From Candidatus Marinacidobacterales bacterium (lineage in GTDB: Bacteria; Acidobacteriota; Vicinamibacteria; Marinacidobacterales; SMYC01): 64,000 bases of DNA. This document shows positions 30,317-52,875 of this stretch, one piece after another. Location: the NCBI GenBank assembly GCA_965224085.1, contig CBDCYI010000004.1, positions 1,536,001 through 1,600,000 of the forward strand. Reading direction: 5' to 3'. Each line of letters opens with the position of its first letter. Within the stretch, counting starts at the first letter, position 1. Below the pieces are notes generated by a model. The model had not been told where the DNA came from, did not search any database, and saw nothing but the letters and a program-made list of their open reading frames with translations. A program made the position numbers and the translations under genes.

Positions 30317-32383
30317 GTGGCGAATCCGGCGGACAAATCGATCGACGCTTACCGGGCAAAGCGTGACTTCGATCGGACCCCCGAGCCCGCTCCAGAAGGG
30401 CGCACCGACACGGGCTTCGCGTCGTTCGTCGTCCACCGGCACGAGGCTCGCAGGCTTCATTACGACCTTCGCTTGGAGATGGAAGGGGTCCTCAAATCCT
30501 GGGCTATACCTCGCGGCTTCTCCTACGATCCTACGGTAAAAAAACTCGCCGTCCGCACGGAGGATCACCCGCTCGCCTATACAGATTTTCACGGCGTCAT
30601 CCCGAAAGGCGAGTATGGCGGCGGCACGATGACGATCTGGGACCGCGGCCGCTACGAGCTCTTGAAAGCCGACGACGGACCCGAAGCCGTCGAAGCAGGC
30701 AAAGTCGAGATAAAGCTGCGGGGCGGGAAGCTGCGCGGCGAATGGCACCTCGTTAAAACGAGGTCGGAAAAACAAGAATGGATCCTCTTCAAAGCACGGG
30801 ACCGCTACTCACGCGACGACGCCGAGAAGCAACCTTTCTTCGATCTCGCGCGCGCGAGCGAGGCACCAGTGCCCGAGCGCGTCGCGCCCATGACGGCGGG
30901 AGAGCCATCCAAGCGCTTTTCCGATCCGGCGTGGCTCTACGAAGTCGAGTTCGCGGGAGAACGAGCGGCGCTTCGCATCGCGAGCGAGAAGACGACGATC
31001 GTCGGTGCGAATGGCGACCTGCTCGGAGACGTCCTCGAGGACGTAGGGCGCTTGCGCTGTGAGCACGCATATGTCGACGGCGTACTCGTCGCGACCGACA
31101 AGAACCAACGACCGTCTCGCGCCGAGCTCGATCGCCGTTTCCGCGGAGAGTCCGACGCGACCGTCGTCTTCTACGCGTTCGATATCCTTCACTACGAGGA
31201 GTGGGATATACGCGCGTTGCCGCTTCTCGAGCGAAAGCAAATATTGCGCGCCGTCTTACCCAAGCTCCAGCACGTTCTGTTCGTCGACCACGTCGCGGCG
31301 CGCGGTGAGGAATTTTGCAGCCTCACCGAGGCCGCCGGGCTTCCCGCCGTCATCGCCAAAAAAGCGGCCGGCTCTTACGCATCAGGACCGTGCGGAGATT
31401 GGCGCCGCATAAAAACGATGGACGCGATTGGGGCTAGCGACAAAGATCTCGTCGAGGCCATGAGCACTCGCAAGCCGAGCACGCGCAAGATCAAGTTCAC
31501 GAACCTCGACAAGATCTTCTGGCCGGAAGAGGGCTATACCAAAGGCGATCTGATCCGCTATTACGAGCATGTCGCCGAGACGCTACTTCCCTATCTTCAC
31601 GAACGTCCCTGCCACATGTTGCGCTATCCGGACGGCATCCACGGCAAGGCCTTTTACCAAAAGGACGCTCCCGACCACGTCCCCGACTGGGTCGAGACCG
31701 AGAGCATCTCCTCGGACAGCAAGGGCGAGGCCATCCGCTACATCGTTTGCAATGACCGGAACACTCTCGTGCTCATGGCCAACCTCGCGAGCATCGACAT
31801 TCATCCATGGTTCTCGCGCCGAAAATCGCAGGACGCGCCAGACTGGGCGGTCTTCGACCTCGACCCCGACGGGTCACCCTTTCCCGATGTCGTGAAGATT
31901 GCACGGACTGTGGGAAAGGTCTTGCGAGGTATCGGGCTCCGGCCCTATTTGAAAACCTCGGGCGCAACCGGCCTTCACGTCTACGTTCCGGTAAAGCCGA
32001 GATACACGTACGAGCACACCCGCCGGTTCTGTGAAGCGGTCGCGATTCACATCGTCAAAGAGCACAAAGACATCGCGACGGTGGAGCGCGTCGTGAGCCG
32101 CAGGCGCGGGAAGGTCTATATCGACTTCTTGCAAAACCGCAAAGGCCAGACGATCGTACCTGCGTACAGCGTGCGGCCGCGGCCGAAAGCGCCCGTTTCC
32201 GCGCCACTCGATTGGGATGAGCTCGACCTCGATCTCGAACCGACTATGTTCAACATCAAGACGATGCTGCCGCGACTCAAAAAGGTCGGCGATCTCTTTC
32301 AGGGAACGCTACGCGACCAGCAAGACTTACTGCCCGCAATCGAAGCGTTCCAGAAGCACTATTTGGACGAGCGCGACCACTAG
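30317..32383 (+). CDS. ligD: LigD-type NHEJ protein: phosphoesterase, degenerate ligase, primase-polymerase
   Basis: YRAKRDF..TPEP, HYDLRLE; RYPDG, FYQK, FDLDP, KTSGATGLH, YIDFLQN. Confidence 0.9.
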   Translation: MANPADKSIDAYRAKRDFDRTPEPAPEGRTDTGFASFVVHRHEARRLHYDLRLEMEGVLKSWAIPRGFSYDPTVKKLAVRTEDHPLAYTDFHGVIPKGEYGGGTMTIWDRGRYELLKADDGPEAVEAGKVEIKLRGGKLRGEWHLVKTRSEKQEWILFKARDRYSRDDAEKQPFFDLARASEAPVPERVAPMTAGEPSKRFSDPAWLYEVEFAGERAALRIASEKTTIVGANGDLLGDVLEDVGRLRCEHAYVDGVLVATDKNQRPSRAELDRRFRGESDATVVFYAFDILHYEEWDIRALPLLERKQILRAVLPKLQHVLFVDHVAARGEEFCSLTEAAGLPAVIAKKAAGSYASGPCGDWRRIKTMDAIGASDKDLVEAMSTRKPSTRKIKFTNLDKIFWPEEGYTKGDLIRYYEHVAETLLPYLHERPCHMLRYPDGIHGKAFYQKDAPDHVPDWVETESISSDSKGEAIRYIVCNDRNTLVLMANLASIDIHPWFSRRKSQDAPDWAVFDLDPDGSPFPDVVKIARTVGKVLRGIGLRPYLKTSGATGLHVYVPVKPRYTYEHTRRFCEAVAIHIVKEHKDIATVERVVSRRRGKVYIDFLQNRKGQTIVPAYSVRPRPKAPVSAPLDWDELDLDLEPTMFNIKTMLPRLKKVGDLFQGTLRDQQDLLPAIEAFQKHYLDERDH

Positions 32384-38087: not shown

Positions 38088-39371
38088 ATGGAGTTTCTTC
38101 TTCTCCCGCTACTCCTCGTTCTCATCGCCATCGGGGTTCCGATCGGCTACGCGCTCATCGCTGCAGGTATCGTCATCATCGCGCTCACGACCTCGACGCC
38201 GCTCGTCGTCGTAGCACAGCGTCTATTCAACGGGTCCGACAGCTTTCCGATGGTCGCCGTGCCGCTCTTCATCCTCGCGGGTGCCCTGATGAACCACGCG
38301 GGCATCTCCCGGCGACTCGTGGATTTCGCCGCGAGCCTCGTTGGCTTCGTCCGAGGGGGGCTCGCGATGACGACAACACTCTCGAGCATGTTCTTCTCCG
38401 AAGTCTCGGGCTCCGCGGTCGCGGATGCTGCTGCTCTCGGAAGTGTCCTCATCCCGGCGATGAAAGAGCGCGGCTACCCCGCACGCTTCGCCGCTGCCGT
38501 TTTGTCCTCATCGGCGACGATCGCTATCATCATCCCGCCATCCATTCCAATGATCCTCTTCGGCGCCATCACCGGAGCGTCGATCGTCAAGCTCTTCATG
38601 GCCGGTGTCGTCCCCGGCATACTCGCCGGGCTCGCCATCATGGGAACGAGCTACTGGCTCGCCCGGCGCGGCGGCTTCGCCGAATCCGAGCCCTTCGATA
38701 TCAAAAAAGTGGGGAAAGGCTTTCGCCGCGGGTTTTGGGCGCTCAGCCTCCCTATCGTCATTCTTGGTGGCATCTTCGCCGGCATCTTCACGGCCACGGA
38801 AGCCGCCGCGGTCGCTGTGTTTCTGGCCCTGAGCCTCGGACTGTTCGCCTATCGGGGCATGAAGCCAAACGCCCTCTGGACGATCCTGGTCGACTCCGCG
38901 CGTCAAACCGCGGTGGTCATGATCCTGGTGGCGGGCTCCGCCGTGCTCGGCTGGTACCTCGCGAACCAACAAGTCCCGGCGCGGCTCGCGACGTTCATCC
39001 TTACAAACGTCACCGGAAACGTCATGGCGCTTCTACTCATCGACGCCATCCTGCTCGCGGCGGGGATGATCCTGCATAGCGCGGCAGCCATCGTGCTGCT
39101 CGTTCCCATCCTGCTGCCATTGACGACAGAACTCGGCCTCGACCCCATCCACTTTGGATTGATGGTGACGGTGAGCCTCGCCATCGGGCAGCAAACCCCT
39201 CCCGTCGCGTCGGTCTTGATCACGACGTGCTCCATCGCCGATGTCCCGATGTGGGACGTGATGCGGGTGAACATCTACTTCATCCTCGCGCTCGCGGTCG
39301 TGCTGCTGCTCGTGACGTTTTTTCCGGGCTTGAGCCTCTTTTTGCCGGAGCTTTTGTCGGCCAAGCCCTAG
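38088..39371 (+). CDS. dctM: TRAP large permease
   Basis: AVPLFILAG, SGSAVAD, IIPPSI, TATEAA, TPPV. Confidence 0.93.
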   Translation: MEFLLLPLLLVLIAIGVPIGYALIAAGIVIIALTTSTPLVVVAQRLFNGSDSFPMVAVPLFILAGALMNHAGISRRLVDFAASLVGFVRGGLAMTTTLSSMFFSEVSGSAVADAAALGSVLIPAMKERGYPARFAAAVLSSSATIAIIIPPSIPMILFGAITGASIVKLFMAGVVPGILAGLAIMGTSYWLARRGGFAESEPFDIKKVGKGFRRGFWALSLPIVILGGIFAGIFTATEAAAVAVFLALSLGLFAYRGMKPNALWTILVDSARQTAVVMILVAGSAVLGWYLANQQVPARLATFILTNVTGNVMALLLIDAILLAAGMILHSAAAIVLLVPILLPLTTELGLDPIHFGLMVTVSLAIGQQTPPVASVLITTCSIADVPMWDVMRVNIYFILALAVVLLLVTFFPGLSLFLPELLSAKP

Positions 39372-39372
39372 C

Positions 39373-39663
39373 TTAGCTGCTACGCGCCCGCGCGAGCTGA
39401 ACGACCGTCGCGCCCCAGCCGCCGCGGTCCGGCGTGGCTTCCTCGAAAGCCTCGACGAGCTCGCTCTTCTCGAGGACACTTCGCACCCGTTGTTTCTGAA
39501 CGCCTTTGCCACGGCCGTGGATGATCCGCACCTCTTCGAATCCCGCTTCCCGCGCCGCTTCCAGATAGGACGCCACCACATCGGCGATGTCCCGGGGCGC
39601 GAACGTATGAAGATCGATGCTGTCCTCAATGGGGTGCTCGACCGGTCGTTCGTCTTCAGTCAT
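39373..39663 (-). CDS. Smr/MutS2 C-terminal domain protein
   Basis: IDLH, IIHGRGKG, GGWGATVV. Confidence 0.92.
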   Translation of the reverse strand: MTEDERPVEHPIEDSIDLHTFAPRDIADVVASYLEAAREAGFEEVRIIHGRGKGVQKQRVRSVLEKSELVEAFEEATPDRGGWGATVVQLARARSS

Positions 39664-39669
39664 CGTGCG

Positions 39670-39767
39670 TGGCGGAAGTGTGTGGGAATCGAACCCACCG
39701 TCCCCGGGATTAACCGAGGACCATCGGATTTGAAGTCCGAGGAGGCCACCAGACCCCAGTCACTTCC
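39670..39767 (-). tRNA. selC: tRNA-Sec (anticodon UCA)
   Basis: 98 nt, extended acceptor stem, 6-bp D stem, loop CTTCAAA, long variable arm, GCCA end. Confidence 0.95.
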
Positions 39768-39787
39768 AGATGAATGGATACAACTAC

Positions 39788-40275
39788 TTAGGATGCACTT
39801 ACCTTCTGCGTTTTGTTGAATTTCAACACCGTGTGACGTGTATGTGCCACCTCTGTGCATCCTTGATCCAGTAATGAGATCGCTTCTCTGGCGGCCACGT
39901 CGTGAGCATATCGCATAGTTGTCACGATGGTCGCATGCCCGGCCAGCGCCTGGACTGTGACTAGATCAACTCCTCGGGCAGCCAGACGGCTACAAAACGT
40001 ATGCCGACACGTGTGAAGTGTAACACCCTTGAGCTTCGCTCTTTGGGCTGCCTTGGCAAACGTCTTTGAGACTTGGGTGCCAAACCCAAAGACCCGGCCG
40101 TGGTCGTTCAGTTCCATTTCACTGAGCGCTTCCAGGACTGTTTTACACAGCGGCAAGCGCCGCGACTTCCCGCTCTTCGATCGCCGAACGACAAGCTGAG
40201 CATGCTCCTGATCCACGTCGCCGCAGTCAAGCCGCAACAACTCGCCTCTCCGGAGGCCTGTGTATAGCGCCATAA
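39788..40275 (-). pseudogene. Tyrosine integrase C-terminal half, cut by IS6
   Basis: TGLRRGEL, HTCRHT, LAGH, TMRY. Confidence 0.9.
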
Positions 40276-41081
40276 GGTATTGTCAAGTTGACGTTGAGCG
40301 AGCGAACCTATTGCGTCGAGCTGATTTCCTTTGCTCTCATCGGACGGCACAGGTTACCTCCTGCCAGACGATGAAAGCGCGGTCTCGTAGCTCCCGATGA
40401 TGATGCGCTTGCAACAAATGCCGTCCGACGCGAAAGAGGTTTTGCACGAGTCCATGCACGGTCAAGAATCGTTGCGCCTGCCCAGGAGTTTTAAACTTCC
40501 GCATCTGTCGTTCCCGTTGTCGCGTCGGTTCGTGCGAGACTTCGGCTAGGTTGTTTCTGTACTGGTCAGTGTCGTGGACGACGGACGGCATGACCTCGCG
40601 GTGAGCGGCGCTGTAGCTTCTCAGTTTGTCGGTGACCAGCTGCCAGGGCGGACGGCCTTGCCCCTTCAACAGCTTGCGGAAGAATCGTTTGGCGGCTTTC
40701 TGATCACGGCGAGGCTGGACGAGGATATCAATCACATCACCATCTTGGTCTACCGCGCGCCAGAGGTATTGGCGTTCGCCTTGTATCTTTATGAAGACCT
40801 CGTCCAGGTGCCACGTGTCACCAAGGCGACCCTGCCAACGCTTCAGTCGCCGAGCGTATTCCGGCCCGAACTTGATGCACCAAAGTCGGATCGCTTCGTA
40901 GGAAACCGTGATGCCTCGCTGAGCAAGCAGCTCTTCGACGTTTCGAAAGCTCACGCAGAATCGGTGGTAGAGCCAGACGGCGTGGCTGATGATTTCCGGT
41001 GGAAATCGATAGCCGTGGTAGCTTGGCGCATCGGTCTTCATTGGACCATTCTGTCAGTCACCAGCTCAATTTTACAGTACC
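40276..41081 (-). mobile_element. IS6-family element, copy 1 (transposase 40337-41041 intact)
   Basis: IRs GGTATTGTCAAGTTGA / GGTACTGTAAAATTGA; WHLDE, TDK and NNLAE DDE motifs. Confidence 0.95.
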
Positions 41082-41759
41082 GGTGTCAGCTCTGGCCGAT
41101 GAGATGGGACTGTCGCTCTGTCCGACAAGCGATGCAACCCGCGATGAATCGCGGGCTCTTTTGCTCGTCAGCTCGCCGGCGACGACTTCGCCACTCTGCT
41201 CGTCGACACACAGATGGAGCTTGCGATAGTCCCTGCTATTTGGTGCTCTGCGCAGCTGGCCGGCGTGGACAGCGAGACCGCTGCTGTCGATCAAGATGTG
41301 CAACGGCGTCTTCTGCTTGTCTTGGTAGAAGGGGACCTTACCCAGCTTCGCCTTGCGCCTCGAGATCGTGGTGTGATCGGGCACATCATTGTCTAGCTTC
41401 ATCAGAGCGAACAACGATCGCAGCAATCCCTCGCTCTGCCTAGACGACAGATGAAAACACCATGCCCAGGGTGACAGCCGTCTCGATGGCGTGGTTCGAG
41501 TACTTGCGTTGACGGCCCGGTTTCCTCCTCCTTGGCCGGGGCGCGTCCCAGTTCACAAGCTTGCCGGCGGTGAGCGAGATCCAGACGGTCAGGCTCCCGC
41601 GGTTGCGTAGACCCGCCTCATATTCACGCCAATTCCTCACGCGATAGGCCTTCTTCACATACTTCCGCTGAGTGCGTTTGAAAATGCTCATGGGGAACCT
41701 CGTATCCGTGAGTACAGGACAATTGTGGACCGAGATCGCGAGTTGTGCACCAAGGCATC
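41082..41759 (-). mobile_element. IS5-family element, frameshifted and 3'-truncated by IS6
   Basis: Near-identical to the 5' part of 58061-59151; extra T near 41455. Confidence 0.92.
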
Positions 41760-41974
41760 GAGAGCGCGGGAAAGCCCCACTCGCCAGCACCAACTTCGGG
41801 GGCTGTCCCTTGCCCTGCCATGTATCCGGAAGGGCAAAGGCAGGGTATCGGCAAAGGCCAGGGGGTGAACAACGAAGCAACACTGCTCGTCGGTCTGAGG
41901 CAAGCCCCGCTAGTCGGCCGGGGACACGAGCAATCCAGATTAGCGGTTCCCAGTTGTGGGATAATAGGAACTCC

Positions 41975-43297
41975 ATGACTGCCAAGACGTCGACCAGATC
42001 CGATCACCCGGCCGAGAAGACCCAGAGCGGAAGTTACTTCGTCTCCAACTACCCTCCTTACGCCAGTTGGACGGACCATGGCTCGAGTGAATTTCACCTG
42101 CAGTTGGAGCAGCCGGCAGGGAAGAACGTACCGCTCGGGATCTACATCCATATTCCATTCTGCCGACTGCGCTGTAAGTTCTGCTACTTCAAGATCTTCA
42201 CCGGTAAGAATGCGAAGGAAATCCAACGCTATCTGGATGGAGCGGTGCACGAACTTGAGCTCTATGCCAAGAGCCCGATCGTTGGCCGACGCAAGCCGCG
42301 ATTCGTCTACTTTGGCGGAGGAACGCCTTCCTATCTCTCGAGCCGGCAACTGGCCGGACTGGCGGACCGAATGCAGGACCTTCTTGTCTGGGACGAAGCG
42401 GAAGAGGTGGCTTTCGAATGCGAGCCGGGAACTCTGACCGAGCCAAAACTGAGGGCCATCCGAAACTTCGGAGTGACTCGACTGAGCCTCGGGGTCGAGC
42501 ATTTCGATGATGAGATCCTGAGCCTCAATGGCCGGGCCCACCTCTCCAAAGAGATCTTTCGTGCCTATGAGTATGCTCGATCGATCGACTTCCCTCAGAT
42601 CAACATCGATCTGATTGCAGGCATGATGGGAGAGACCTGGGAAAAATGGCGATCCTGTGTCAAACATGCTCTGGACCTGCAGCCCGACAGCATCACCCTC
42701 TATCAGATGGAGCTCCCCCACAACACCTCCATCTCCCGAGAGATGAGGGAGCGGGGAGAGGTGGCCGGACCGGTGGCAGATTGGCAGACCAAGCGCGATT
42801 GGGTCCAGCACGGTTTTGAGGAGTTCGAGAAGCTCGGGTACACCGTTATTGATGGTTACACAGCCGTCAAGGACCCTGACCGAACCCGCTTTGTCTACCG
42901 AGAGCTCCTCTGGAGGGGAGCCGATATGATCGGAGTCGGCAACTCGGCGATTGGACACTTGGGAGGTGCTCACTACCAGAACGAGGCCAGCTTTGACGGC
43001 TATCTCGAGAAAATCGAGAACGACCGCTTACCGGTTTGGCGGACTCTCCAGCTAAACCGGCAAGAGCTTCTGATCCGAGAACTTATTCTGCAGCTAAAGT
43101 TCGGGCAAGTCAGCCGCGAATACTTCCAGAAAAAGTTCGACGTCGATATCCGATCCCACTTTGCAAAACCGATAGTCCGGCTCCAGGAGACAGGTCTACT
43201 GGAGGCCCGGGGCGGCGATCTGACTCTGACCCGAGAAGGTCTACTGCGCGTGGATGGACTGCTTCCCCAATTCTTCTTGCCCCAGCATCTGTCCTGA
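41975..43297 (+). CDS. HemN-like (class C) radical SAM enzyme
   Basis: YIHIPFCRLRCKFCYF, YFGGGTPS, RLSLGV, NIDLIAG. Confidence 0.9.
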   Translation: MTAKTSTRSDHPAEKTQSGSYFVSNYPPYASWTDHGSSEFHLQLEQPAGKNVPLGIYIHIPFCRLRCKFCYFKIFTGKNAKEIQRYLDGAVHELELYAKSPIVGRRKPRFVYFGGGTPSYLSSRQLAGLADRMQDLLVWDEAEEVAFECEPGTLTEPKLRAIRNFGVTRLSLGVEHFDDEILSLNGRAHLSKEIFRAYEYARSIDFPQINIDLIAGMMGETWEKWRSCVKHALDLQPDSITLYQMELPHNTSISREMRERGEVAGPVADWQTKRDWVQHGFEEFEKLGYTVIDGYTAVKDPDRTRFVYRELLWRGADMIGVGNSAIGHLGGAHYQNEASFDGYLEKIENDRLPVWRTLQLNRQELLIRELILQLKFGQVSREYFQKKFDVDIRSHFAKPIVRLQETGLLEARGGDLTLTREGLLRVDGLLPQFFLPQHLS

Positions 43298-43309
43298 CGG
43301 TAAACCCTC

Positions 43310-43759
43310 ATGGCCTACGAATTCAAACTGACTGATCGGGTCCAGTTCGCGGAAACTGACCTCGCGGGAATTGTCCATTTCACGAATTTCTTTTGCTATA
43401 TGGAAGCGGCTGAGCACGCCTTCTATCGATCCCTGGGATTCAGTATCCACTCTCCAGGATTACCTCGAACCCTGGGCTTGCCGCGGGTTGCCGCGGCCTG
43501 CAAGTACCGCGCACCTCTCTACTTCGAGGATCAGTTCGAAACTCACCTCCTGGTGCGTGAAGTACGAGAGAAGACGCTCAGTTACGTCTTCTACTTCCGC
43601 CGCTTGTTGAGCGACGCCAGTCCGGTCGTTGCCCGCGCCGAGCTGACTATCGCCTGTGTAGCGATCGAGGACGGACTGGTATGCATGAAAGGAATTACCA
43701 TCCCGACGAGCTTGCGCGACCAGCTTGAGGTAGCGCCTGAGGAACTAATGGTCTCCTAG
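43310..43759 (+). CDS. 4HBT/YbgC-like acyl-CoA thioesterase
   Basis: VQFAETDLAGIVHFTNFFCYMEAAE. Confidence 0.9.
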   Translation: MAYEFKLTDRVQFAETDLAGIVHFTNFFCYMEAAEHAFYRSLGFSIHSPGLPRTLGLPRVAAACKYRAPLYFEDQFETHLLVREVREKTLSYVFYFRRLLSDASPVVARAELTIACVAIEDGLVCMKGITIPTSLRDQLEVAPEELMVS

Positions 43760-44153
43760 GCTCCGGATGACAACCTGGGAGGTTATCCTACAAGGCTCCG
43801 CCCGTGCCGACCTGCCGGCTTGGGCAGAATCGCCCTTGTACTCCAAGCACCTGCTTGGCTTGGAATCAAGTTTGACTGGCTGGGTTTGGTCGAACCCTGG
43901 GTCGGCCGAAGGCTGCGCTCCGCTGGCGGCTCTGATAGTTGTGCCCTGAAGTTGAATGGGAGTCGATCACCGGATCTGGGAGTTGGAGTGCCCACTCTCG
44001 GAGCGCCAAGCGCCAGCGCGAGCGGAATGTGTGCCACTCTTAGCCCTAATCGCAAAATCTTCGAAGCACGAAAACGCGAAACAGCCGCACTGGGCGCAGG
44101 CAAGAAGCTCATTCTGGGGCACCCGCTCGCCGCCACGATAGGTGATTCTGCAC

Positions 44154-45025
44154 GGTATTGTCAAGTTGACGTTGAGCGAGCGAACCTATTGCGTCGAGCT
44201 GATTTCCTTTGCTCTCATCGGACGGCACAGGTTACCTCCCGCCAGACGATGAAAGCGCGGTCTCGTAGCTCCCGATGATGATGCGCTTGCAACAAATGCC
44301 GTCCGACGCGAAAGAGGTTTTGCACGAGTCCATGCACGGTCAAGAATCGTTGCGCCTGCCCAGGAGTTTTAAACTTCCGCATCTGTCGTTCCCGTTGTCG
44401 CGTCGGTTCGTGCGAGACTTCGGCTAGGTTGTTTCTGTACTGGTCAGTGTCGTGGACGACGGACGGCATGACCTCGCGGTGAGCGGCGCTGTAGCTTCTC
44501 AGTTTGTCGGTGACCAGCTGCCAGGGCGGACGGCCTTGCCCTTTCAACAGCTTGCGGAAGAATCGTTTGGCGGCTTTCTGATCACGGCGAGGCTGGACGA
44601 GGATATCAATCACATCACCATCTTGGTCTACCGCGCGCCAGAGGTATTGGCGTTCGCCTTGTATCTTTATGAAGACCTCGTCCAGGTGCCACGTGTCACC
44701 AAGGCGACCCTGCCGACGCTTCAGTCGCCGAGCGTATTCCGGCCCGAACTTGATGCACCAAAGTCGGATCGCTTCGTAGGAAACCGTGATGCCTCGCTGA
44801 GCAAGCAGCTCTTCGACGTTTCGAAAGCTCACGCAGAATCGGTGGTAGAGCCAGACGGCGTGGCTGATGATTTCCGGTGGAAATCGATAGCCGTGGTAGC
44901 TTGGCGCATCGGTCTTCATTGGACCATTCTGTCAGTCACCAGCTCAATTTGACAGCAATGGCACCGCCCGCGTGGGCGGAGGTCATCGGGGAGTGACCGA
45001 AATCGTTCGTTCACTCGAAAGTACC
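44154..45025 (-). mobile_element. IS6-family element, copy 2 (transposase 44215-44919), with extended left end
   Basis: Near-identical to copy 1; ~67 bp extension shared with copy 3. Confidence 0.95.
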
Positions 45026-45383
45026 GTTTGACGGAGTGAACGGAGTGAAGCAAACAATCGACCTCCTCGCCGCTCAAGATATCGGGTAACGTTCGAGGTT
45101 TCTTGGGCCAAGGAATCTTCGCCACCTCCTCCGGGCGGTTGAGTGTGGTTGCGTAGAGAAACTTGAGAGAGGCGACGTACATGTGGTGGCTGGCCGGAGA
45201 GGCCTTCTTCTCGTTAACGAGATGAATCAGATAATCGCGGGTCTCCGGCTCGCCCATCTCGGCGGGTGAGCGCATGTAATGTGCCGCGAAATGGCGCGCT
45301 CGCAGCAGATACTCCTCCTGCGTGGAGCGTGCGAACCCCTTCAGTTTCATGTCGGCAAGCATTTTTTCGCTAAGGCATCCCAT
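45026..45383 (-). pseudogene. N-terminal fragment of a tyrosine recombinase of the type that accompanies IS91-like transposases
   Basis: KMLADMKLKGFARSTQEEY...SLKFLY...LPDILSGEEV; cut by IS6. Confidence 0.8.
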
Positions 45384-45939
45384 GATTATTCCTCCAGTGA
45401 TTTAGCAGACGACGACCATCGCCGCCCGCGGGGGACAGGGATGATGCCATGTGTGAGAGAGCGGTTCCGAGAAACGCAGGACTCGTTGTCCAGAGCGAAG
45501 ATCGAACGAATGAAGACGACGGCGAAGCCGTCCTCCTTATTCCCTTCTGGCTCCCGTGGCCCGGAAAAACAAGGGAAACGGGTTAGAGGCGAGTGAGTTC
45601 ACCGCGGCTGGCTTGCCGTGCAAAACCCGGAGTCCGGAGCCCCTGCCGGAGGCACCCGTCCGCCCATCGCCCATAGTGACTCGCATCACGGCGCGTAGGT
45701 TGTGTCCAGGGCGGCGCAGCCGGCGCGCGAAGCGCGCGAAACCCTTGACACGACCTGCGCGCCGTGATTCCCTGGAAGGGCGATGGGCTGCGGCGAAAAA
45801 GGCGCAGGCAAAATGCCCCCAGTTTGGCTCACCAGTTCGGGAGAGCTTGCAGGTCCCGCCGCCGCGCGAGCGGCTTAGTTCAACCCTCGTTTTGTTGACT
45901 CGAGTCATCGGCTTGGCCTAGGATAGGAATTCCTTTTGT

Positions 45940-46015
45940 GGGGCTGTGGCGCAGCTGGGAGCGCGCCTGAATGGCATTCAGGAGGCCACGGGTTCGATCC
46001 CCGTCAGCTCCACCA
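45940..46015 (+). tRNA. tRNA-Ala (GGC)
   Basis: 76-nt cloverleaf, G3-U70 pair, CCTGA-ATGGCAT-TCAGG, CCA end. Confidence 0.96.
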
Positions 46016-46199
46016 AAGGAATCAGCAAGTTAGAGGTTACAGAAACTAGGCGCTGTGGAAAAGGGGCTAGTAGGGGACCATGGGGGGCCGATTCGATTTG
46101 GGGCGCCCTAAAACCCTCCAACCGTGGAATTTCATCGTCCGTTCCGATCATCGGCTGTGAAGCGTAACCTCCATTTTGGCGGCAAGCTCCGGTAGTGGT

Positions 46200-46661
46200 C
46201 TAGTTGCAATAATCTCGCCCGTGGTCCAGTACATCTCCTTGCCGAGCTTCGTCGAGCTCAACGGCAAGCGCGGACAAGAGGTTGAACTCGGTATCGGAGG
46301 GACGCAAGACGTCGACGAAATCCTCGCTGGCGAGGAGCGCGTGGAGGCGCAATTTCTCGAGTGCGCTAGAAAGCGTGAACTGCACGCCGTGTAGCGGCAG
46401 GCCCTCGAAGCCCTCCTCGCGCGCCCCAGCGCGGCGGCTCCAAACGACGCGAGCCGCGATCTTGCACAGGCGTGGCTGATGGTAGAAGGAGAGCTTGAGG
46501 TAAACCTCGCTCCCGGGAGCCAGAGGTCTGTCGGTCACGAGGCAGGCACCGGTCATCGAAATGTTGGTCAGCACGCCGTAGTCGCGCTGCTGGGAATCCG
46601 TGAACACCGCCGCGGTCGCGGCGTGTTTAGGTGCCAGCCGTTGAATCGTTCGCTTCTCCAT
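46200..46661 (-). CDS. PilZ domain protein
   Basis: EKRTIQR, NISMTGACL, ARVVW, GVQF; C-terminus may be degraded. Confidence 0.75.
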   Translation of the reverse strand: MEKRTIQRLAPKHAATAAVFTDSQQRDYGVLTNISMTGACLVTDRPLAPGSEVYLKLSFYHQPRLCKIAARVVWSRRAGAREEGFEGLPLHGVQFTLSSALEKLRLHALLASEDFVDVLRPSDTEFNLLSALAVELDEARQGDVLDHGRDYCN

Positions 46662-47078
46662 AGGAACGGCTTCTCCAAAGGAGGTAGTGTCCGCTCGGCG
46701 AAAGTCCAATGCCGAGCGAGAGAACATCTGGTTCAGTGTATGCATGAGTTTTTGGTCTCCGGGGTCTCTTTGCAAGTGCTATACCATCGTCGGTGCGGGA
46801 TGGATCTTTCTTGTAACTGGCTTATTGATGTCGTTTACGCCTTTCTTGTCCAGTCGCCATTCCGGGGATCCACCGGAATGCGCCCGCAAAAGCGGCGGGG
46901 CGATAAGAAAGGCGGTGGGTCCGCGGAAAAAGCGGCGGGCCTCCAGGTTCGTGATAGCCGGTCGCCTAATGATGCTACACTTCACCGGTGCCGACGTGCA
47001 TGAGCTAGCGGCGGCGGCTCGCCCGACAGACCTCGCAGCGTGCTGACGCGCGACAAGAAATCACGTTGTAACCTTTGC

Positions 47079-47132
47079 ATCCATTCATCTGGAAGTGACT
47101 GGGGTCTGGTGGCCTCCTCGGACTTCAAATCC
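47079..47132 (+). repeat. Attachment-site duplicate: 12-nt leader plus the first 42 nt of tRNA-Sec, inverted relative to the intact gene
   Basis: 54-bp exact reverse complement of 39726-39779. Confidence 0.95.
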
Positions 47133-47200
47133 CATCTGGACCGAGCACATGTTCGATGGATACGACGCTTGTGTCGTCCTGTCAAGGAGTTAGCCCGTTT

Positions 47201-47266
47201 CGAGTTCGACTGAGTTCGACCAAGTTCGACTGACTTGCGCGACAAGGTGGCACAAATGTGTCACAC
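47201..47266. promoter_or_regulatory. Putative recombination accessory sites
   Basis: Three 10-bp-phased AGTTCGAC repeats; 47245-47266 matches the reverse complement of 39831-39852 at 18/22. Confidence 0.55.
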
Positions 47267-47371
47267 GTGGCGAGTCGACGTGCTATTTCTGTTACTCTCC
47301 CTAGTTTTGGGAGACGCCGGGCGTGAGTGTGCCCGCCTCGGCGCTTAACTCCCGCTTGGCGAGAATACCGG

Positions 47372-48127
47372 TTACTTGTTCTTGCGGCGGTTGGAGCGGA
47401 TGAGGCCGAGGAGCCCGGCGCCGAGGAGGAAGATGGTGGAGGGTTCGGGCACGGCAGCCTGGACATCCCCGTCACGCACGGCCCAAGGGACCCAAATAGA
47501 ATCGTTCTCAACCCAGCCCCCCGTCTGGTGGCCGGCTGGCTCAAACCTTCGGATGAAAATAAAGTAGTAGGCCCAGTCCACAAGCTCCGGAGTTCCGCCG
47601 GGGCCGCAGTCGGAGCACATAACCTGGTCCTGGAGTTTCGTTTCCGACCAAAACCCCCCGTTCCGTCCTGCCTCGAGATTCGCAAACAGCGCGAGGTCTG
47701 GATCGCCGCTATCGAGAATCGATTGGAGGTAAGTACCTCCCAGCTCGTTGTAAAACATGTGTCCCATCTCGCTACCGGTGCAGTTTCCCCCGAATGAACT
47801 TACGAAGGTGGACATGCCCGAGCATGTCGGGTCCGACAGCAGCGTTATGGGTAGACGCCAGTCGTTGAAACCGAGGTAGCCGGTTCCACCGGCCGCGTTC
47901 ATTGCAGGCAGCCACTCGTAATGAGCGGTGATCCACGACATCGTCCCATCGGCGTTAATGCCTGACACGCCGAACGTTTGACTCGCTGCAAGATTCGCAT
48001 CTGCAAGCCAGGTTATATCGAGGTCGGTATCGTAGACGGCTTGCCCACCCAGCCGCGGGATCAGCGTCGCGTGGGCTGGCGCTGCCAACAGCACCAACAA
48101 GCCCGTACTCAATAGTAGCTTTAGCAC
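47372..48127 (-). CDS. PEP-CTERM sorting-domain surface protein (Lcl/DUF1566-like region)
   Basis: Signal peptide, YDTDLDITWL, GFNDWRLP, VPEPSTIFLLGAGLLGL.RR; start uncertain. Confidence 0.88.
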   Translation of the reverse strand: MLKLLLSTGLLVLLAAPAHATLIPRLGGQAVYDTDLDITWLADANLAASQTFGVSGINADGTMSWITAHYEWLPAMNAAGGTGYLGFNDWRLPITLLSDPTCSGMSTFVSSFGGNCTGSEMGHMFYNELGGTYLQSILDSGDPDLALFANLEAGRNGGFWSETKLQDQVMCSDCGPGGTPELVDWAYYFIFIRRFEPAGHQTGGWVENDSIWVPWAVRDGDVQAAVPEPSTIFLLGAGLLGLIRSNRRKNK

Positions 48128-48535
48128 TTTGCGCGTCAGGAACTCCGATCTGACAAGTGAAGCAACTACCACGCCACTTCCAAGAAACGTGGTGTTTCCA
48201 TACATTTAGGACCAACCGCGACTTTATGAAGAGACCCAGAACGTAAGCTATTCCGACGCAGCACATCAACAGAACAACAAAGTCTAACTACGACTCTTTT
48301 TAGAATCAGTAACTTGCCGATAGCGCGTAGGTTCGTAGGCCAAGCGTAGGATTTCCGACAGTTGATCGCTCCGTCGGAGGCTCCCGCTCCTGCTTCTTCG
48401 TCTGGGTCGGGTGGAAGCGAGCCGGGCTGAGCACTCTACCCGCTTGGGGACTGTGCCGACGATGAGTGAAAACGACGTTCTAGGTTGAAAACCGACCTCC
48501 TTTCTGATTCTATTCACCCCGAGAGGGCTCCATGG

Positions 48536-48805
48536 ATGCGCGTTATTGCCATCGCTCTCGTTTGGCTTGCGACGAGCGCGTTTACTCAGACGTTTGATGC
48601 GAAGGTCGTTGGCGTTCACGACGGCGATACGATCACTGTCTATGATGGCCGCGAGCAGACACGAATTCGTCTCGATGGAATCGACTGCCCGGAGAACGGC
48701 ACGGACTTCTCCCAACGAGCGAAGCAATTCACGTCCGAGCTCGTCTTCGGAAGGCAGGTTCGGATTGACGGCAAAGAGACGGACCAATACGGCCGCCTCG
48801 TCTGA
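48536..48805 (+). pseudogene. Thermonuclease (SNase-like) N-terminal fragment
   Basis: VHDGDTI, IRLDGIDCPE, DQYGRLV then stop. Confidence 0.85.
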
Positions 48806-48960
48806 ATGCGGACTGGAGTCAGTCGACGTTGAAACCGCGTTCGAAGCCGTCGTGGGTGAGGAGACAATGCGCCCCCTAATAGGCGTGGGGCAATCGCCCG
48901 GCCGCTCTTCGTGAGGAAGTCGACCCACCAGAAAACTCAGGCACAATGAGGACACCATAG

Positions 48961-49461
48961 ATGACCATATTGGTGGTTGGAGCCACAGGCATGACCGGAC
49001 GGTCCCTAGTGAAACAGTTGCAGGGCAAGGGTCACAACGTTCGCGTTATTGTACGCTCGTCTCACAAACTCCCCGCCGAGGTTTTGGAAAACTCAAACAC
49101 GACGGTCATAGAGGCCAGTGTTCTCGACTTAACTGATGAGGAGATGGCGGAGCACGTAAAGAACTGTGATGCAGTTGTCTCGTGCTTAGGACATGTCATG
49201 GATTTCCGCGGAATGTTTGGAGATCCGAAAAATCTATGCACAGACGCGACGCGACGTTTATGTGACGTGATCGAAAAGAATGGCCCTCCCAAACCCACCA
49301 AATTCATTCTTATGAACACCGTTGGGGTCCAGAATCCCGATCTCGAAGAGAAGAGGACTTGGTTTGACCGGGGACTCCTTATCCTCTTGCGTCACACTTT
49401 GCCTCCGGCCAGGGACAATGAAACAGCGGCTCAGCCGCTGGACACCCAGTGCGTGGTATGA
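48961..49461 (+). pseudogene. NAD(P)H-binding Rossmann protein, C-terminally truncated
   Basis: LVVGATGMTG, CDAVVSCLG; abuts the integrase fragment. Confidence 0.75.
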
Positions 49462-49580
49462 AGTTGTTGCGCGAGAACAACAATAAGATGCGAGTGCTTT
49501 CCTCTGAGGAGGAGGTGGCGCTTTTGAAGGCAGCTCGAGCCAGCCGGCAGCCTCAGTTGGCTCTCTTTATTGTTATGGAA
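49450..49580 (+). pseudogene. Middle fragment of the tRNA-Sec island integrase
   Basis: Reads MKLLRENNNKMRVLSSEEEVALLKAA...LALFIVM and joins MALYTGLRRGE at 40273 through shared TTATGG. Confidence 0.8.
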
Positions 49581-50452
49581 GGTACTTTCGAGTGAACGAA
49601 CGATTTCGGTCACTCCCCGATGACCTCCGCCCACGCGGGCGGTGCCATTGCTGTCAAATTGAGCTGGTGACTGACAGAATGGTCCAATGAAGACCGATGC
49701 GCCAAGCTACCACGGCTATCGATTTCCACCGGAAATCATCAGCCACGCCGTCTGGCTCTACCACCGATTCTGCGTGAGCTTTCGAAACGTCGAAGAGCTG
49801 CTTGCTCAGCGAGGCATCACGGTTTCCTACGAAGCGATCCGACTTTGGTGCATCAAGTTCGGGCCGGAATACGCTCGGCGACTGAAGCGTCGGCAGGGTC
49901 GCCTTGGTGACACGTGGCACCTGGACGAGGTCTTCATAAAGATACAAGGCGAACGCCAATACCTCTGGCGCGCGGTAGACCAAGATGGTGATGTGATTGA
50001 TATCCTCGTCCAGCCTCGCCGTGATCAGAAAGCCGCCAAACGATTCTTCCGCAAGCTGTTGAAAGGGCAAGGCCGTCCGCCCTGGCAGCTGGTCACCGAC
50101 AAACTGAGAAGCTACAGCGCCGCTCACCGCGAGGTCATGCCGTCCGTCGTCCACGACACTGACCAGTACAGAAACAACCTAGCCGAAGTCTCGCACGAAC
50201 CGACGTGACAACGGGAACGACAGATGCGGAAGTTTAAAACTCCTGGGCAGGCGCAACGATTCTTGACCGTGCATGGACTCGTGCAAAACCTCTTTCGCGT
50301 CGGACGGCATTTGTTGCAAGCGCATCATCATCGGGAGCTACGAGACCGCGCTTTCATCGTCTGGCAGGAGGTAACCTGTGCCGTCCGATGAGAGCAAAGG
50401 AAATCAGCTCGACGCAATAGGTTCGCTCGCTCAACGTCAACTTGACAATACC
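49581..50452 (+). mobile_element. IS6-family element, copy 3; transposase has CGA>TGA nonsense at 50206
   Basis: Inverted relative to copies 1 and 2; carries the extended left end. Confidence 0.95.
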
Positions 50453-50575
50453 CTCAAAAGGAGTGGAAATGAAGTAGAAGTAAAGGAATTGGAATCCTTC
50501 GTTCAAGGGGAAACCGTGGTATCCTAAGAAGCGTCTTTCAATGCAGAAGGGGGCAGTGCCATTTGGAGGAGGACT

Positions 50576-50827
50576 ATGGCCAAAGCGCGAGTGTTGACGA
50601 GGTCGGAACTAGCCGAGCATTTGGGCGTCGATAAAAAGATGGTAACAAAATGGGAGCGGTCTGGGATGCCGGTCCACACTAGAGGGCGCGGCGTGGCGTC
50701 TCAATTCCGTCTGCGGGAGGTCCGTGCGTGGCTAAAGGTGCGGGAAGCCAAGGCCAAAGCGGCGGAGAAGGCAAAGGTGCGAGAAGCCAAAGCGGCAGAG
50801 AAGGCGAAGAAGACAGCGAAGCAATAA
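50576..50827 (+). CDS. Small winged-helix protein (Nu1 terminase small subunit/excisionase-like)
   Basis: LTRSELAEHLGVDKKMVTKWERSGMP...VRAW; strong RBS GGAGGA. Confidence 0.6.
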   Translation: MAKARVLTRSELAEHLGVDKKMVTKWERSGMPVHTRGRGVASQFRLREVRAWLKVREAKAKAAEKAKVREAKAAEKAKKTAKQ

Positions 50828-51019
50828 GACGCGGCGGCGATGAGATGAGACAAGTCTGACTGCGCGAGTCCTTGGAACTCGCTAGTCTCGCGGTACCGGT
50901 TGCCAACGACGCTGCTCGGGGAGCGCGTCGTACTCCTGGTCTTCGGTGACGAGTGCCTCTTCGAAACTGCGAAAGCTGTCGACGGCTTGCTTGCCCAGAT
51001 GGGACAGCAGGGGGTGGCC

Positions 51020-51285
51020 TTCCCTGGGATCGTGAGCTTGCTCAGGGACTTGAGGCTGACTTGCTTTCCTTTGATAGGGAAAAGCGCTCTATTCCTGGAA
51101 TCCACAATTCTACGAGACGGAAGGTGCTTATTGAGCAGCTCCTAGAAAGCGTTCGCCGGGTCAAGTATGTTGAGGTGATCCGCACGCTGAAGCTGAGCAA
51201 TCGTCGTGCCGACCCGAACGATGATCTGTTCGATCCTTTGAAAGCTGCGATACTGTGTCAGCGTCGGCGGAATATACAAGATGTA
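51020..51285 (+). pseudogene. Fragment resembling an aGPT-pyrophosphorylase clade 3 protein
   Basis: IPGI...LIEQLLESVRRVKY...RRADPNDDLFDPLKAAIL; family recalled from memory. Confidence 0.45.
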
Positions 51286-51534
51286 AAGTCGAACATGGTC
51301 TTTGGACATTTTCTCAACCAGCAGCAACGAGGAATGGTGGCGGCTACAGTGTGATAGCCGCTTGCCTTTTGTTACATATGGTTCGAATTTCGCCGACTGC
51401 GTTTATAGAGCTTCGCGTACTTGGCGTGTGCCTGAAGCTGTTTTCACGCTACGCCGAGCGGGCCCACCAAGGGGCTACCGTCGCCGGCGACCATCTACGC
51501 GGCACGGCAGTAGTAGTTGAGAATGCCCCAAAGT

Positions 51535-52508
51535 GAGTCAAGCCCATTCTTAGTTGAAATGTTCTACGGCTCCCGGTTCGTTTAAGCAACGTTCTTCCTC
51601 GACGTATTCTTTTTCGCGGTCTCGATCTTCAGTTCACGCTTGAGCGCTTCACGCAGCTTTGGAAGGTGTCGGTAGCCCATCACCTTCCGGAGGCGCGGCT
51701 CGATGTCGGTGAGCGCGGTCGCGAGCCAGCGTTGGCGTTGGTTCGAAGTCTTCCAGTGATCGACCTTCGCGCAACGTTCCTCGATAAGCGCATTGACGGA
51801 CTCGATGCAGTTCGTCGTCTTTAGTGAGTGACCGAGCACCCCGTACACGCCAAGACGATGCAAGGTCAGGGTCTCCTCCAGCCCCTCTTCGAGGCTAGAG
51901 GCCGCAGACTGATTCCTCTCTTCCAGCTCGCGGTGGAGTTGCTCGAGGGCCTCAAGCGCCTCCTTGTGCGTCGGCCGGCCGTACGCGCGCTGCAGCCGCT
52001 TGCGCCACAACGACTGCTCGCTCTTGGACAAATAGCTCACGACATTCTCTCGTTTGTGCCACTGGCAACGGCCCACGACGACCCGCCTGCGAAAGGCCTT
52101 GGTCACGGCTCCTCGCAGCCCCTTGCTGCCGTCGATGACCACCAGCAGCCCTTCAGAGATATCGAGACCCCGCTCGACCAATGAACGCAGAAACGACCTA
52201 AGAACACGCTCGTTCTCAGTGTCTGTCTCCACGAAGCCGAGGAAGCGTTTGTCCCCGGATAACGTGATGCCGAGAGCCACCACCATCGTCGCGTCGGCGA
52301 ACGTCTTGCCGTCCAGGACCATCGCCACCACGTCCTCACCCGAGAGATCACGCTCCTGCATCTCACGCAGCTTCGCTGCGCTTGCTTCGACGAAGCCGCG
52401 CGACACCGACGAACTCGACAGACCGATCGCGCCCGGGACCAATTCCGCCGCCGACTCATAGTTCCGGCACGAGATCCCGTACAGCACTCTTCGTAGAAGC
52501 AACTTCGC
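51535..52508 (-). mobile_element. IS256-family element, 5'-truncated
   Basis: VLDGK, VIDGSKGL, RCQWHKRENV, TTNCIES; terminus GAGTCAAGCCCATTCTTAGTTGAAA. Confidence 0.88.
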
Positions 52509-52875
52509 TTGAGCTCCTCGGCACCGTCGAGCGCTTTGCTTCCCTCCGCGTAGTAGTCGAACCAAGCCAGTCCACTGTCTGTATAGGTCTTCGCGGTCGG
52601 CGGGGGTGTGGGAGGCTTCTCTCCGGTGATCGCTTCCCACACCAGCGAGTTGGCCAAGTGCACGTAGCAGCGACTGCCCGCTCTGGGAATCGGTGCTCGA
52701 ACGCGTCTCGTCGCATGGGATATACAAGGATCTGGAGTCCACCGTACTCGGCCTTCCTGGTTACTTGTTCCTCGGCGGTGTATCCACCACCCAGTGGCAT
52801 CGCCACAAACTGCCGAATGACGCCCTTTTTGACACAGAAGCCGTCGAGCCACGGCTGTTGCGGGACTACCATGTA
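52509..52875 (-). pseudogene. Frameshifted fragment of a conserved hypothetical protein
   Basis: QPWLDGFCV..GVIRQFVAMPLG.GYTAEEQ, then in another frame RCYVHLAN...PPTAKTYT..GLAWFDYY. Confidence 0.6.

Follow-up and report, generated by a model that had tools for sequence, protein, structure and literature searches.

A probable remnant of an integrative element that entered a selenocysteine tRNA gene from its 5' side in an acidobacterium

In the genome of a Candidatus Marinacidobacterales bacterium (Acidobacteriota; assembly GCA_965224085.1), the gene for the selenocysteine tRNA (tRNA-Sec) stands behind the end of a broken tyrosine integrase gene, and an exact second copy of its 5' half lies nearby in inverted orientation, attached to the sequence that precedes tRNA-Sec in related genomes. 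We analyzed this locus within a stretch of 64,000 nucleotides (nt) of contig CBDCYI010000004.1 (positions 1,536,001 to 1,600,000), hereafter the window, to which all positions below refer unless a locus in another genome is named. At a probability that we put at roughly three in four, the locus holds the eroded remnant of an integrative element that entered tRNA-Sec with reverse polarity and was later rearranged by an inversion between insertion sequences (IS) of the IS6 family. The observations that carry this reading are the repeat itself, the native and foreign identities of its flanks, the splitting of the integrase gene and the recurrence of the same attachment-site (att) architecture in other genomes.

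The intact tRNA-Sec (anticodon TCA; 39670-39767, minus strand) was identified with ARAGORN and with the Rfam model RF01852, against which it scored 74 bits (gathering score, 47). Its nt 1-42 and the 12-nt leader in front of them form the identity block of the right attachment site, attR (39726-39779, minus strand). The reverse complement of this block recurs at all 54 of 54 bases at 47079-47132 on the plus strand, where the left site, attL, consists of the displaced native leader and tRNA-Sec nt 1-42. A repeat search widened the pair to 61 nt at 97% identity (39723-39783 and 47075-47135, inverted). An exact repeat of 54 nt in 64 kb is far beyond chance, and the 5' half of tRNA-Sec has just two matches in the entire genome, the gene at 39670-39767 being the sole intact tRNA-Sec that we found. 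The partial copy and the DNA downstream of it scored 28 bits, below the gathering score; the target gene is, therefore, whole again after integration, as the contrast between a 74-bit intact gene and a 28-bit fragment region attests. An initial annotation made from the letters alone had reported the exact repeat of the leader and nt 1-42, which stood up to the last base, and had passed over the orientation of the copies. With the intact gene on the minus strand and the partial copy on the plus strand, the two form an inverted repeat, a geometry not produced by simple integration.

The origin of the two flanks was established by comparison with relatives. We ran a query composed of smr and tRNA-Sec on 41 genomes, the window genome (G000) and 40 related ones. 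In two members of the same genus (G001 and G003), a complete tRNA-Sec is directly preceded by sequence approximately 90% identical to window 46945-47090, and the window genome parts from both exactly after tRNA-Sec nt 42. Uninterrupted tRNA-Sec sites thus exist in related genomes and, because the same upstream sequence precedes the complete gene there, the broken copy in the window sits on native upstream DNA. By the same comparison the intact gene has foreign DNA in front of it: its leader and 5' 42 nt came with the element, and the native upstream region was moved away. This is the arrangement that the initial annotation had predicted for relatives without the island, and the empty sites support its proposal that reverse-polarity integration cut tRNA-Sec off from its native upstream sequence. 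The native DNA that once stood upstream of tRNA-Sec spans 45884-47078 (plus strand; orthologous in G001, G002 and G003) and includes tRNA-Ala(GGC) (45940-46015), a PilZ gene (46200-46775, minus strand) and the conserved tRNA-Sec upstream region proper (46945-47078). In G003 the co-oriented tRNA-Ala(GGC) lies about 600 nt further upstream and corresponds to window 45887-46016. On the other side of tRNA-Sec the window has smr (39373-39663, minus strand) and then a TRAP transporter operon; smr directly follows tRNA-Sec in G001 and is preceded by a 1.1-kb insert in G003. Three more relatives have integrase-type sequence upstream of tRNA-Sec: G002, of the same genus, retains the last 92 integrase codons; G010, of another genus, has a 356-residue gene with one frameshift; and G013 has a remnant of about 75 recognizable nt.

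Insertions of other kinds also occur at this gene. G003 (locus L005, 385-1524) and G004 carry a classic small insertion at the 3' end of tRNA-Sec, 1.1 kb long in G003, whose limits are marked by a 24-nt repeat of the tRNA 3' end and which contains two small open reading frames (ORFs) without an integrase. Both ends of the tRNA-Sec gene have, therefore, been used within one genus. Extra partial matches to the tRNA-Sec 3' end, reaching to about nt 31, were present in G021 and G025 and suggest classic-polarity fragments of the anticodon type in another family of the same order. In G002 (locus L013, 9625-10021) the DNA beside tRNA-Ala is the ortholog (93% identity) of window 31908-32304, which indicates a further, larger rearrangement of the dctPQM-smr-tRNA-Sec-tRNA-Ala block between genomes.

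The sequence now in front of the intact tRNA-Sec belongs to a tyrosine integrase. An open frame of 161 codons (39788-40273) matched the catalytic domain of tyrosine recombinases (Pfam PF00589, E 5e-25), and the fragment (39788-40275, minus strand) corresponds to residues 196-356 of P0001 (356 amino acids), which together with P0002 (361 amino acids) was the closest full-length protein in a large protein collection. It is 67% identical to P0001 over all 161 amino acids and keeps the catalytic stretches RRGEL, HTCRH and RYAHD, which align with both proteins. The fragment stops 20 nt before the 5' end of tRNA-Sec, from which it is separated by a short spacer and the element-supplied leader (39768-39787), so the initial annotation had rightly placed the intact tRNA after an integrase 3' end. 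The gene itself is not intact. A tblastn search of the whole genome with P0001 recovered residues 145-196 at 49422-49577 on the plus strand, a middle fragment (49422-49580) that abuts the right end of one IS6 copy (copy C), while the 3' fragment abuts the left end of another (copy A). In the alignment across the break the middle piece ends in LALFIVM and the 3' piece begins with MALYTGLRRGEL. Residues 1 to about 144 of P0001 left no trace in the genome by tblastn, and where the missing N-terminus should be there is a truncated NAD(P)H-binding gene (48961-49461). The window integrase is thus split by IS6 and has lost about 150 N-terminal residues, which presumably leaves the element immobile.

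One other candidate for the missing part was considered, a SAM-like recombinase N-terminus at 45026-45383 that at first sight seemed to join the 3' fragment in frame across the segment from copy A to copy B. This candidate was rejected, as it shows no similarity to P0001 and is part of a separate multi-copy element. In P0001 itself, some 60 residues with no more than a weak match to DUF6538 precede the core-binding domain, which is followed by the catalytic domain. The near-full-length integrase at tRNA-Sec in G010 (locus L017, 10001-11075) is 94% identical to P0001 and carries a frameshift near residue 294 that removes the region of the catalytic tyrosine; as this is a metagenome-assembled genome from long reads, the frameshift could be a sequencing error.

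Reverse polarity recurs among relatives of the window integrase, as supported by the layout of their loci. We searched P0001 against two samples of 401 genomes each, one drawn from the class and one from the phylum and both including the window genome, and scanned the 45 returned loci for tRNAs in a flank of about 1.5 kb. A tRNA or transfer-messenger RNA (tmRNA) gene was present in the flank of 37 loci, always at the integrase 3' end, and absent from that of the other eight. The layout was convergent, as in classic elements, at 27 loci, and tandem at 10, with the integrase running into the tRNA 5' end. Five tandem loci are at tRNA-Sec (G000, G002, G010, G742 and G747) and the others at tRNA-Leu(CAA) (G227 and G470), tRNA-Leu(TAG) (G705), tRNA-Arg(CCG) (G735) and, at a distance of 438 nt, tmRNA (G761). 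Displaced 5' halves were mapped upstream as direct repeats in three of them: in G227, an 8-nt leader and nt 1-42 of tRNA-Leu(CAA) recur 16.3 kb away; in G470, 1 nt and nt 1-42 of the same tRNA recur 14.5 kb away; and in G747, nt 1-39 of tRNA-Sec recur 45.4 kb away on the same contig and strand. Among convergent relatives, G369 has a 47-nt 3' fragment that starts near the anticodon stem, which represents classic polarity at the same sublocation, and G245 has tmRNA 3'-end fragments of 23-31 nt; no fragment was found within 40 kb in G351 and G338. The integrase family plainly uses both directions.

How often the direction changed was estimated from a quick tree of 40 rows, one of which was dropped as too short; partial or near-duplicate sequences (L031, L040, L064, L078, L079 and the G000 and G002 fragments) had been left out beforehand. 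Tandem loci were scattered over this tree, parsimony required at least four changes between tandem and convergent layouts, and in one well-supported clade a convergent member stood with two tandem ones. The idea that the tandem loci form one clade was rejected: in a 16-row tree the grouping of the G227 integrase with P0001 and P0002 had weak support (66/88), with G227 on a long branch, and the larger tree scattered the tandem loci. Further members of the family were recovered at five loci of genome contigs (one of them close) and at three distant loci of metagenome contigs, and none was found in viral contigs.

Two tandem loci have features of their own. G747 (loci L090, L091 and L092) contains four partial tRNA-Sec 5' halves, three of them followed by the same conserved arm sequence; beyond the repeat on the integrase contig there are three more such fragments, two with the arm sequence after them. 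The half on the integrase contig is preceded by sequence resembling an integrase end, a pattern that serial (tandem) integrations would leave if each one moved the older junctions further upstream. In G227 (locus L035) the integrase frame (1237-2520) enters tRNA-Leu (2474-2562) and stops 4 nt past the identity block, so the last integrase codons would differ between the integrated and excised states.

The architecture of the att sites is shared by the elements with both ends mapped (those of the window, G227, G470 and G747). In the window, a motif with paired GGCACA and GTCACA half-sites lies inside the 3' end of the integrase coding sequence, 69 nt before the identity block (P arm; 39830-39852, minus strand), and again on the far side of attL, starting 113 nt downstream of the block (P' arm; 47245-47267, plus strand). 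The two match at 18 of 22 positions (19 of 23 in the repeat search) against a maximum of 16 over 40 shuffles, and three 10-mers phased at spacings of 10 and 10 precede the P' motif (47203-47236, plus strand). Both the arm-like motif inside the two ends and the phased 10-mers had been noted in the initial annotation. All four elements have a motif of two short direct half-sites, placed 68-99 nt upstream of the block in the integrase 3' coding end and repeated 113-129 nt downstream in attL (68 and 113 nt in G227), with 18, 22, 19 and 20 matches of 22 against shuffle maxima of 16-17. In all four the block stops 0-3 nt beyond the 7-nt anticodon loop, and the anticodon stem-loops of tRNA-Sec and tRNA-Leu(CAA) are alike in sequence. 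From this layout we infer that strand exchange would take place in the anticodon loop, with core sites on the arms of the stem and the integrase bound to the arm sites. Heterobivalent (arm-binding) integrases are characterized by repeated arm-type motifs to either side of the core and by an extra N-terminal domain; observed here were motif pairs in four of four elements and, in P0001, the N-terminal 60 or so residues with their weak DUF6538 match, and the binding as such is a prediction. The notion that the P' arm is a decayed tRNA 3' half was rejected, as alignments beat shuffles in none of the four elements despite the 28-bit Rfam match. The same layout bears on whether the partial copy could be a chance segmental duplication or a tRNA pseudogene made by a transposon, next to an integrase by coincidence. 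The region is indeed crowded with transposable elements. Yet the copy ends at nt 42, precisely as in G227 and G470 and no more than 3 nt from the end in G747, arm motifs stand at matching distances in all four elements, and the DNA beside the partial copy is what natively precedes tRNA-Sec in relatives, so we regard such a coincidence as highly improbable.

The inverted orientation of attL is best explained by an inversion between IS6 copies. The IS6-family element (DDE transposase, NCBIfam NF033587, 211 bits against a cut-off of 125) produces 45 BLAST hits in the 6.9-Mb genome and exists as variants of 872 nt and about 802 nt, both multi-copy and differing by 66 nt near the right end. Copy A (40276-41081, minus strand; the 802/806-nt variant) and copy B (44154-45025, minus strand; 872 nt) are in direct orientation, and both are inverted with respect to copy C (49581-50452, plus strand; 872 nt), whose transposase frame is cut short at 173 amino acids. 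The two integrase fragments lie on opposite strands, each against an IS6 end. IS6-family elements generate an 8-bp target duplication, and the two 8-nt flanks at the integrase break agree at six of eight positions, including the shared hexamer TTATGG. Turning round the segment between copies C and A (or C and B) rejoins the integrase across one IS6, sets attL and attR in direct orientation and brings back the succession of tRNA-Ala, native upstream region and tRNA-Sec. The two tRNA genes are co-oriented in all three relatives in which both were retrieved (G002, G003 and G013) and opposed in the window.

An assembly artefact, in which a wrong join at an IS6 copy turned a locus whose attL and attR are really direct, would produce the same picture. 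Repeats of about 870 bp are plentiful in this genome, as the 45 BLAST hits indicate, public unitigs are unable to phase the junctions, and tRNA-Ala and tRNA-Sec point the same way in relatives. We nevertheless consider such an error unlikely: the window is part of a 1.95-Mb contig, which suggests that repeats of this size were spanned, and the integrase halves abut IS6 ends and share 6 nt, as a real insertion followed by recombination between copies would leave them. The public short-read unitigs (four runs from three studies) cover 45100-49560 and break at both edges of the 54-nt repeat; at 47075 and 47132 they show the alternative flanks of a two-copy repeat, integrase-type upstream sequence and the tRNA 3' half. 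Some unitigs in runs X2 and X3 fuse the end of tRNA-Ala (46015) to the start of tRNA-Sec (47089/47100) and skip about 1.08 kb; their short sides measure 23-30 nt, and they possibly derive from other organisms in the samples.

The unitig graph fits either pairing of the flanks, and exact inverted repeats with different upstream sequence on each side are a geometry in which the 54-61-bp repeats could act as a flip switch. Inversion of 39784-47074 would bring the native upstream sequence before the intact tRNA-Sec and create two expression states for selenocysteine (Sec) decoding. No intact recombinase is left for these sites, however, and the 7.3-kb interval holds IS cargo and native genes in place of a dedicated switch. 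The same geometry occurs in no relative and is fully accounted for as a by-product of IS6 rearrangement. A switch is, in our estimate, very unlikely, and we favor the IS6-mediated inversion of an integrated element.

Several observations weigh against that reading or loosen its details. The presumed IS6 target duplication matches at only six of eight positions and no other pair of flanks agrees; copy A differs from copy C in length variant, and the second (partner) IS6 copy showed no matching duplication. Unitigs cannot phase the flanks across the 54-nt repeat, and the arrangement consequently has no independent confirmation from reads. A displaced 5'-half copy was recovered at only four of the 10 tandem loci. 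None was found genome-wide in G002 and G010, or in the stretches around the loci of G742 (10 kb, to the contig end), G735 (6.8 kb), G705 (40 kb) and G761 (10 kb), from which it follows that the other end has mostly been lost, lies far away or went unassembled. The deep branches of the integrase tree are weakly supported and the tandem loci do not form one clade, which makes the count of polarity switches soft. Finally, a sigma-70 scan returned no promoter-like site at either junction (zero in 46700-47500 and zero in 39300-40300).

The sequence of events that we propose is as follows. The tyrosine integrase of the element would set its own attachment site, attP, immediately 3' of the integrase gene, and attP would carry the tRNA-Sec leader and 5' 42 nt in place of the 3' part. 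A recombination event within the anticodon loop or beside it would then insert the element on the upstream side of the gene. At attR, the integrase 3' end, the element-supplied leader and 5' half and the host 3' half would make up a working gene; at attL, the host upstream region and 5' half would be followed by the P' arm and remain as a dead fragment. An IS6-family element may later have entered the integrase gene, with loss of the first 150 or so codons, and an inversion between opposed IS6 copies (C with A or B) would have turned attL and the island body relative to attR. The single tRNA-Sec would, in this way, have ended up permanently behind integrase-derived DNA. The order of the IS6 events is the one that we infer from the present arrangement.

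The inversion also calls for a correction of the island boundaries. Because the copies are inverted, 39784-47078 is not the island interior. The only island parts of that interval are the spacer, leader and integrase 3' piece at its left end; the rest consists of copy A, 3 kb of cargo and copy B, an 858-nt foreign fragment and native DNA. The island remnant is instead made up of 47133-49580, to the right of the broken copy, and 39768-40275, together about 3 kb without IS DNA. It begins with the P' arm (47133-47300, plus strand), where the phased 10-mers and arm motif are located, and continues with the remaining cargo (47372-49421): a PEP-CTERM protein (47372-48205, minus strand), a 224-amino acid ORF without a family match (48284-48958, minus strand) and the truncated NAD(P)H-binding gene (plus strand). 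In a comparison of 47133-49421 (2289 nt) with the window genome and 20 related genomes, about 300 nt matched, in three of them and at other loci, and this DNA is largely private to the window genome.

The DNA around the remnant has other sources. The cargo between copies A and B (41082-44153) comprises IS5-like transposase fragments, a HemN-like radical SAM gene (41672-43297, plus strand) and a thioesterase gene (43310-43759, plus strand), and lies outside the tRNA-Sec element. Next to copy B, 45026-45883 (minus strand) is an 858-nt terminal fragment of another multi-copy element, the one with the SAM-like recombinase N-terminus, which gave 17 BLAST hits in the genome and about 15-fold unitig depth. 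The fragment is cut by copy B and ends 56 nt before tRNA-Ala; its other half was not found next to another IS6 copy in 40000-52000. Just past copy C, at 50953-51354 and 51582-52742, a fragment of the alpha-glutamyl/putrescinyl thymine pyrophosphorylase family (a family of phage DNA-modification enzymes) lies beside a Mutator-family transposase.

The position of the only tRNA-Sec has potential consequences for its expression. The genes selA, selB and selD each scored above the curated cut-off and contain no internal stops. As the sole tRNA-Sec coexists with this intact machinery, it is expected to be expressed from its present context, and thus it is presumably transcribed from element-derived DNA. 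The hexamers CTGACG and TAACCT that the initial annotation had pointed out before the broken copy are indeed there (47043 and 47069), but with a 20-nt spacer, and the sigma-70 scan returned no site in that region. Its broader idea, that the element could control Sec decoding, has the standing of a conjecture. The short remnants before tRNA-Sec in G002 (92 codons) and G013 (about 75 nt) would fit the keeping of a needed upstream signal, or they may reflect neutral decay. We tentatively propose, with more doubt than confidence, a general scenario in which this integrase family takes control of how the sole tRNA-Sec of the host (or a tRNA-Leu) is transcribed, by fusing the gene behind int, with upstream signals that overlap the arm sites. 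Selenoprotein synthesis would then depend on the element and could be modulated by it; after decay the last 75-270 nt or so would be kept as the new promoter, with G002 and G013 as fossil-like examples, and polarity at the symmetric anticodon stem-loop would flip repeatedly.

These findings bear on a working rule according to which tRNA integrases replace the 3' part of the gene, the host promoter stays in charge and island-finding software seeks 3' fragments downstream. Here both polarities occur within one integrase family of a single phylum, at sites of one kind, and the reverse members give the host gene new upstream DNA. A search confined to the stretch from a tRNA to a fragment downstream of it will miss islands of the reverse type or misplace their boundaries. 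Element-derived sequence can, moreover, come to stand permanently in front of a single-copy tRNA on which selenoproteins depend. Integrases of this family also form natural pairs in which to ask what decides the direction of integration when the core is nearly symmetric. The window copy is itself a fossil, and its direct biological effect is limited to the replacement of a promoter.

The canonical elements that target tRNA and tmRNA genes with a tyrosine integrase are exemplified by the selC islands of enterobacteria. The window element resembles them in its tyrosine integrase, in an attP next to int, in a predicted crossover inside the tRNA gene, in the restoration of the gene by element DNA, in a displaced fragment that marks the far end and in the arm-type repeats that flank the core. 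Convergent members of its integrase family, such as those of G369 and G245, follow the canonical pattern. Unlike them, it brings the leader and the 5' half, enters upstream and replaces the transcription signals. Canonical polarity, in which the element supplies the 3' part and leaves a 3' fragment downstream, failed to describe the window, where the fragment is the leader and nt 1-42 with native upstream sequence. In the literature available to us, a search found nothing on 5'-half integration at tRNA-Sec, on cases in Acidobacteriota or on repeated polarity switches within one integrase family. The usual rule is that the 3' half belongs to the common core and the tRNA is thereby made whole again (PMC10865867); the configuration filter of the Islander method allows a 5' fragment upstream (PMC4383910). 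A survey that quotes a scheme of three integration sublocations in tRNA genes (anticodon-loop, T-loop and 3'-end) reports, as the exception to all its other islands, Klebsiella islands with clade I.d integrases, located upstream of the tRNA gene arg2 at a D-loop sublocation (10.1101/2020.11.02.365908). Upstream integration at tRNA genes thus has scattered precedent. The window element is like the clade I.d islands in its use of the upstream side, and is set apart from them in that they concern Gammaproteobacteria, an arginine tRNA and the D-loop, and ours Acidobacteriota, tRNA-Sec and tRNA-Leu, and blocks that end at the anticodon stem-loop (nt 39-42). The dusA-specific integrases differ in targeting a protein-coding gene and not a tRNA (PMC4482086). 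The later history of the locus has its closest counterpart in the rearrangements of IS26-like (IS6 family) elements, with which it shares the IS6-family transposase, the many near-identical copies, the direct copies around cargo and the inverted copies around an inverted segment, and from whose expected pattern it departs in a duplication that agrees at six of eight positions instead of the full 8 bp and in the different length variants of the copies at the ends of the inversion.

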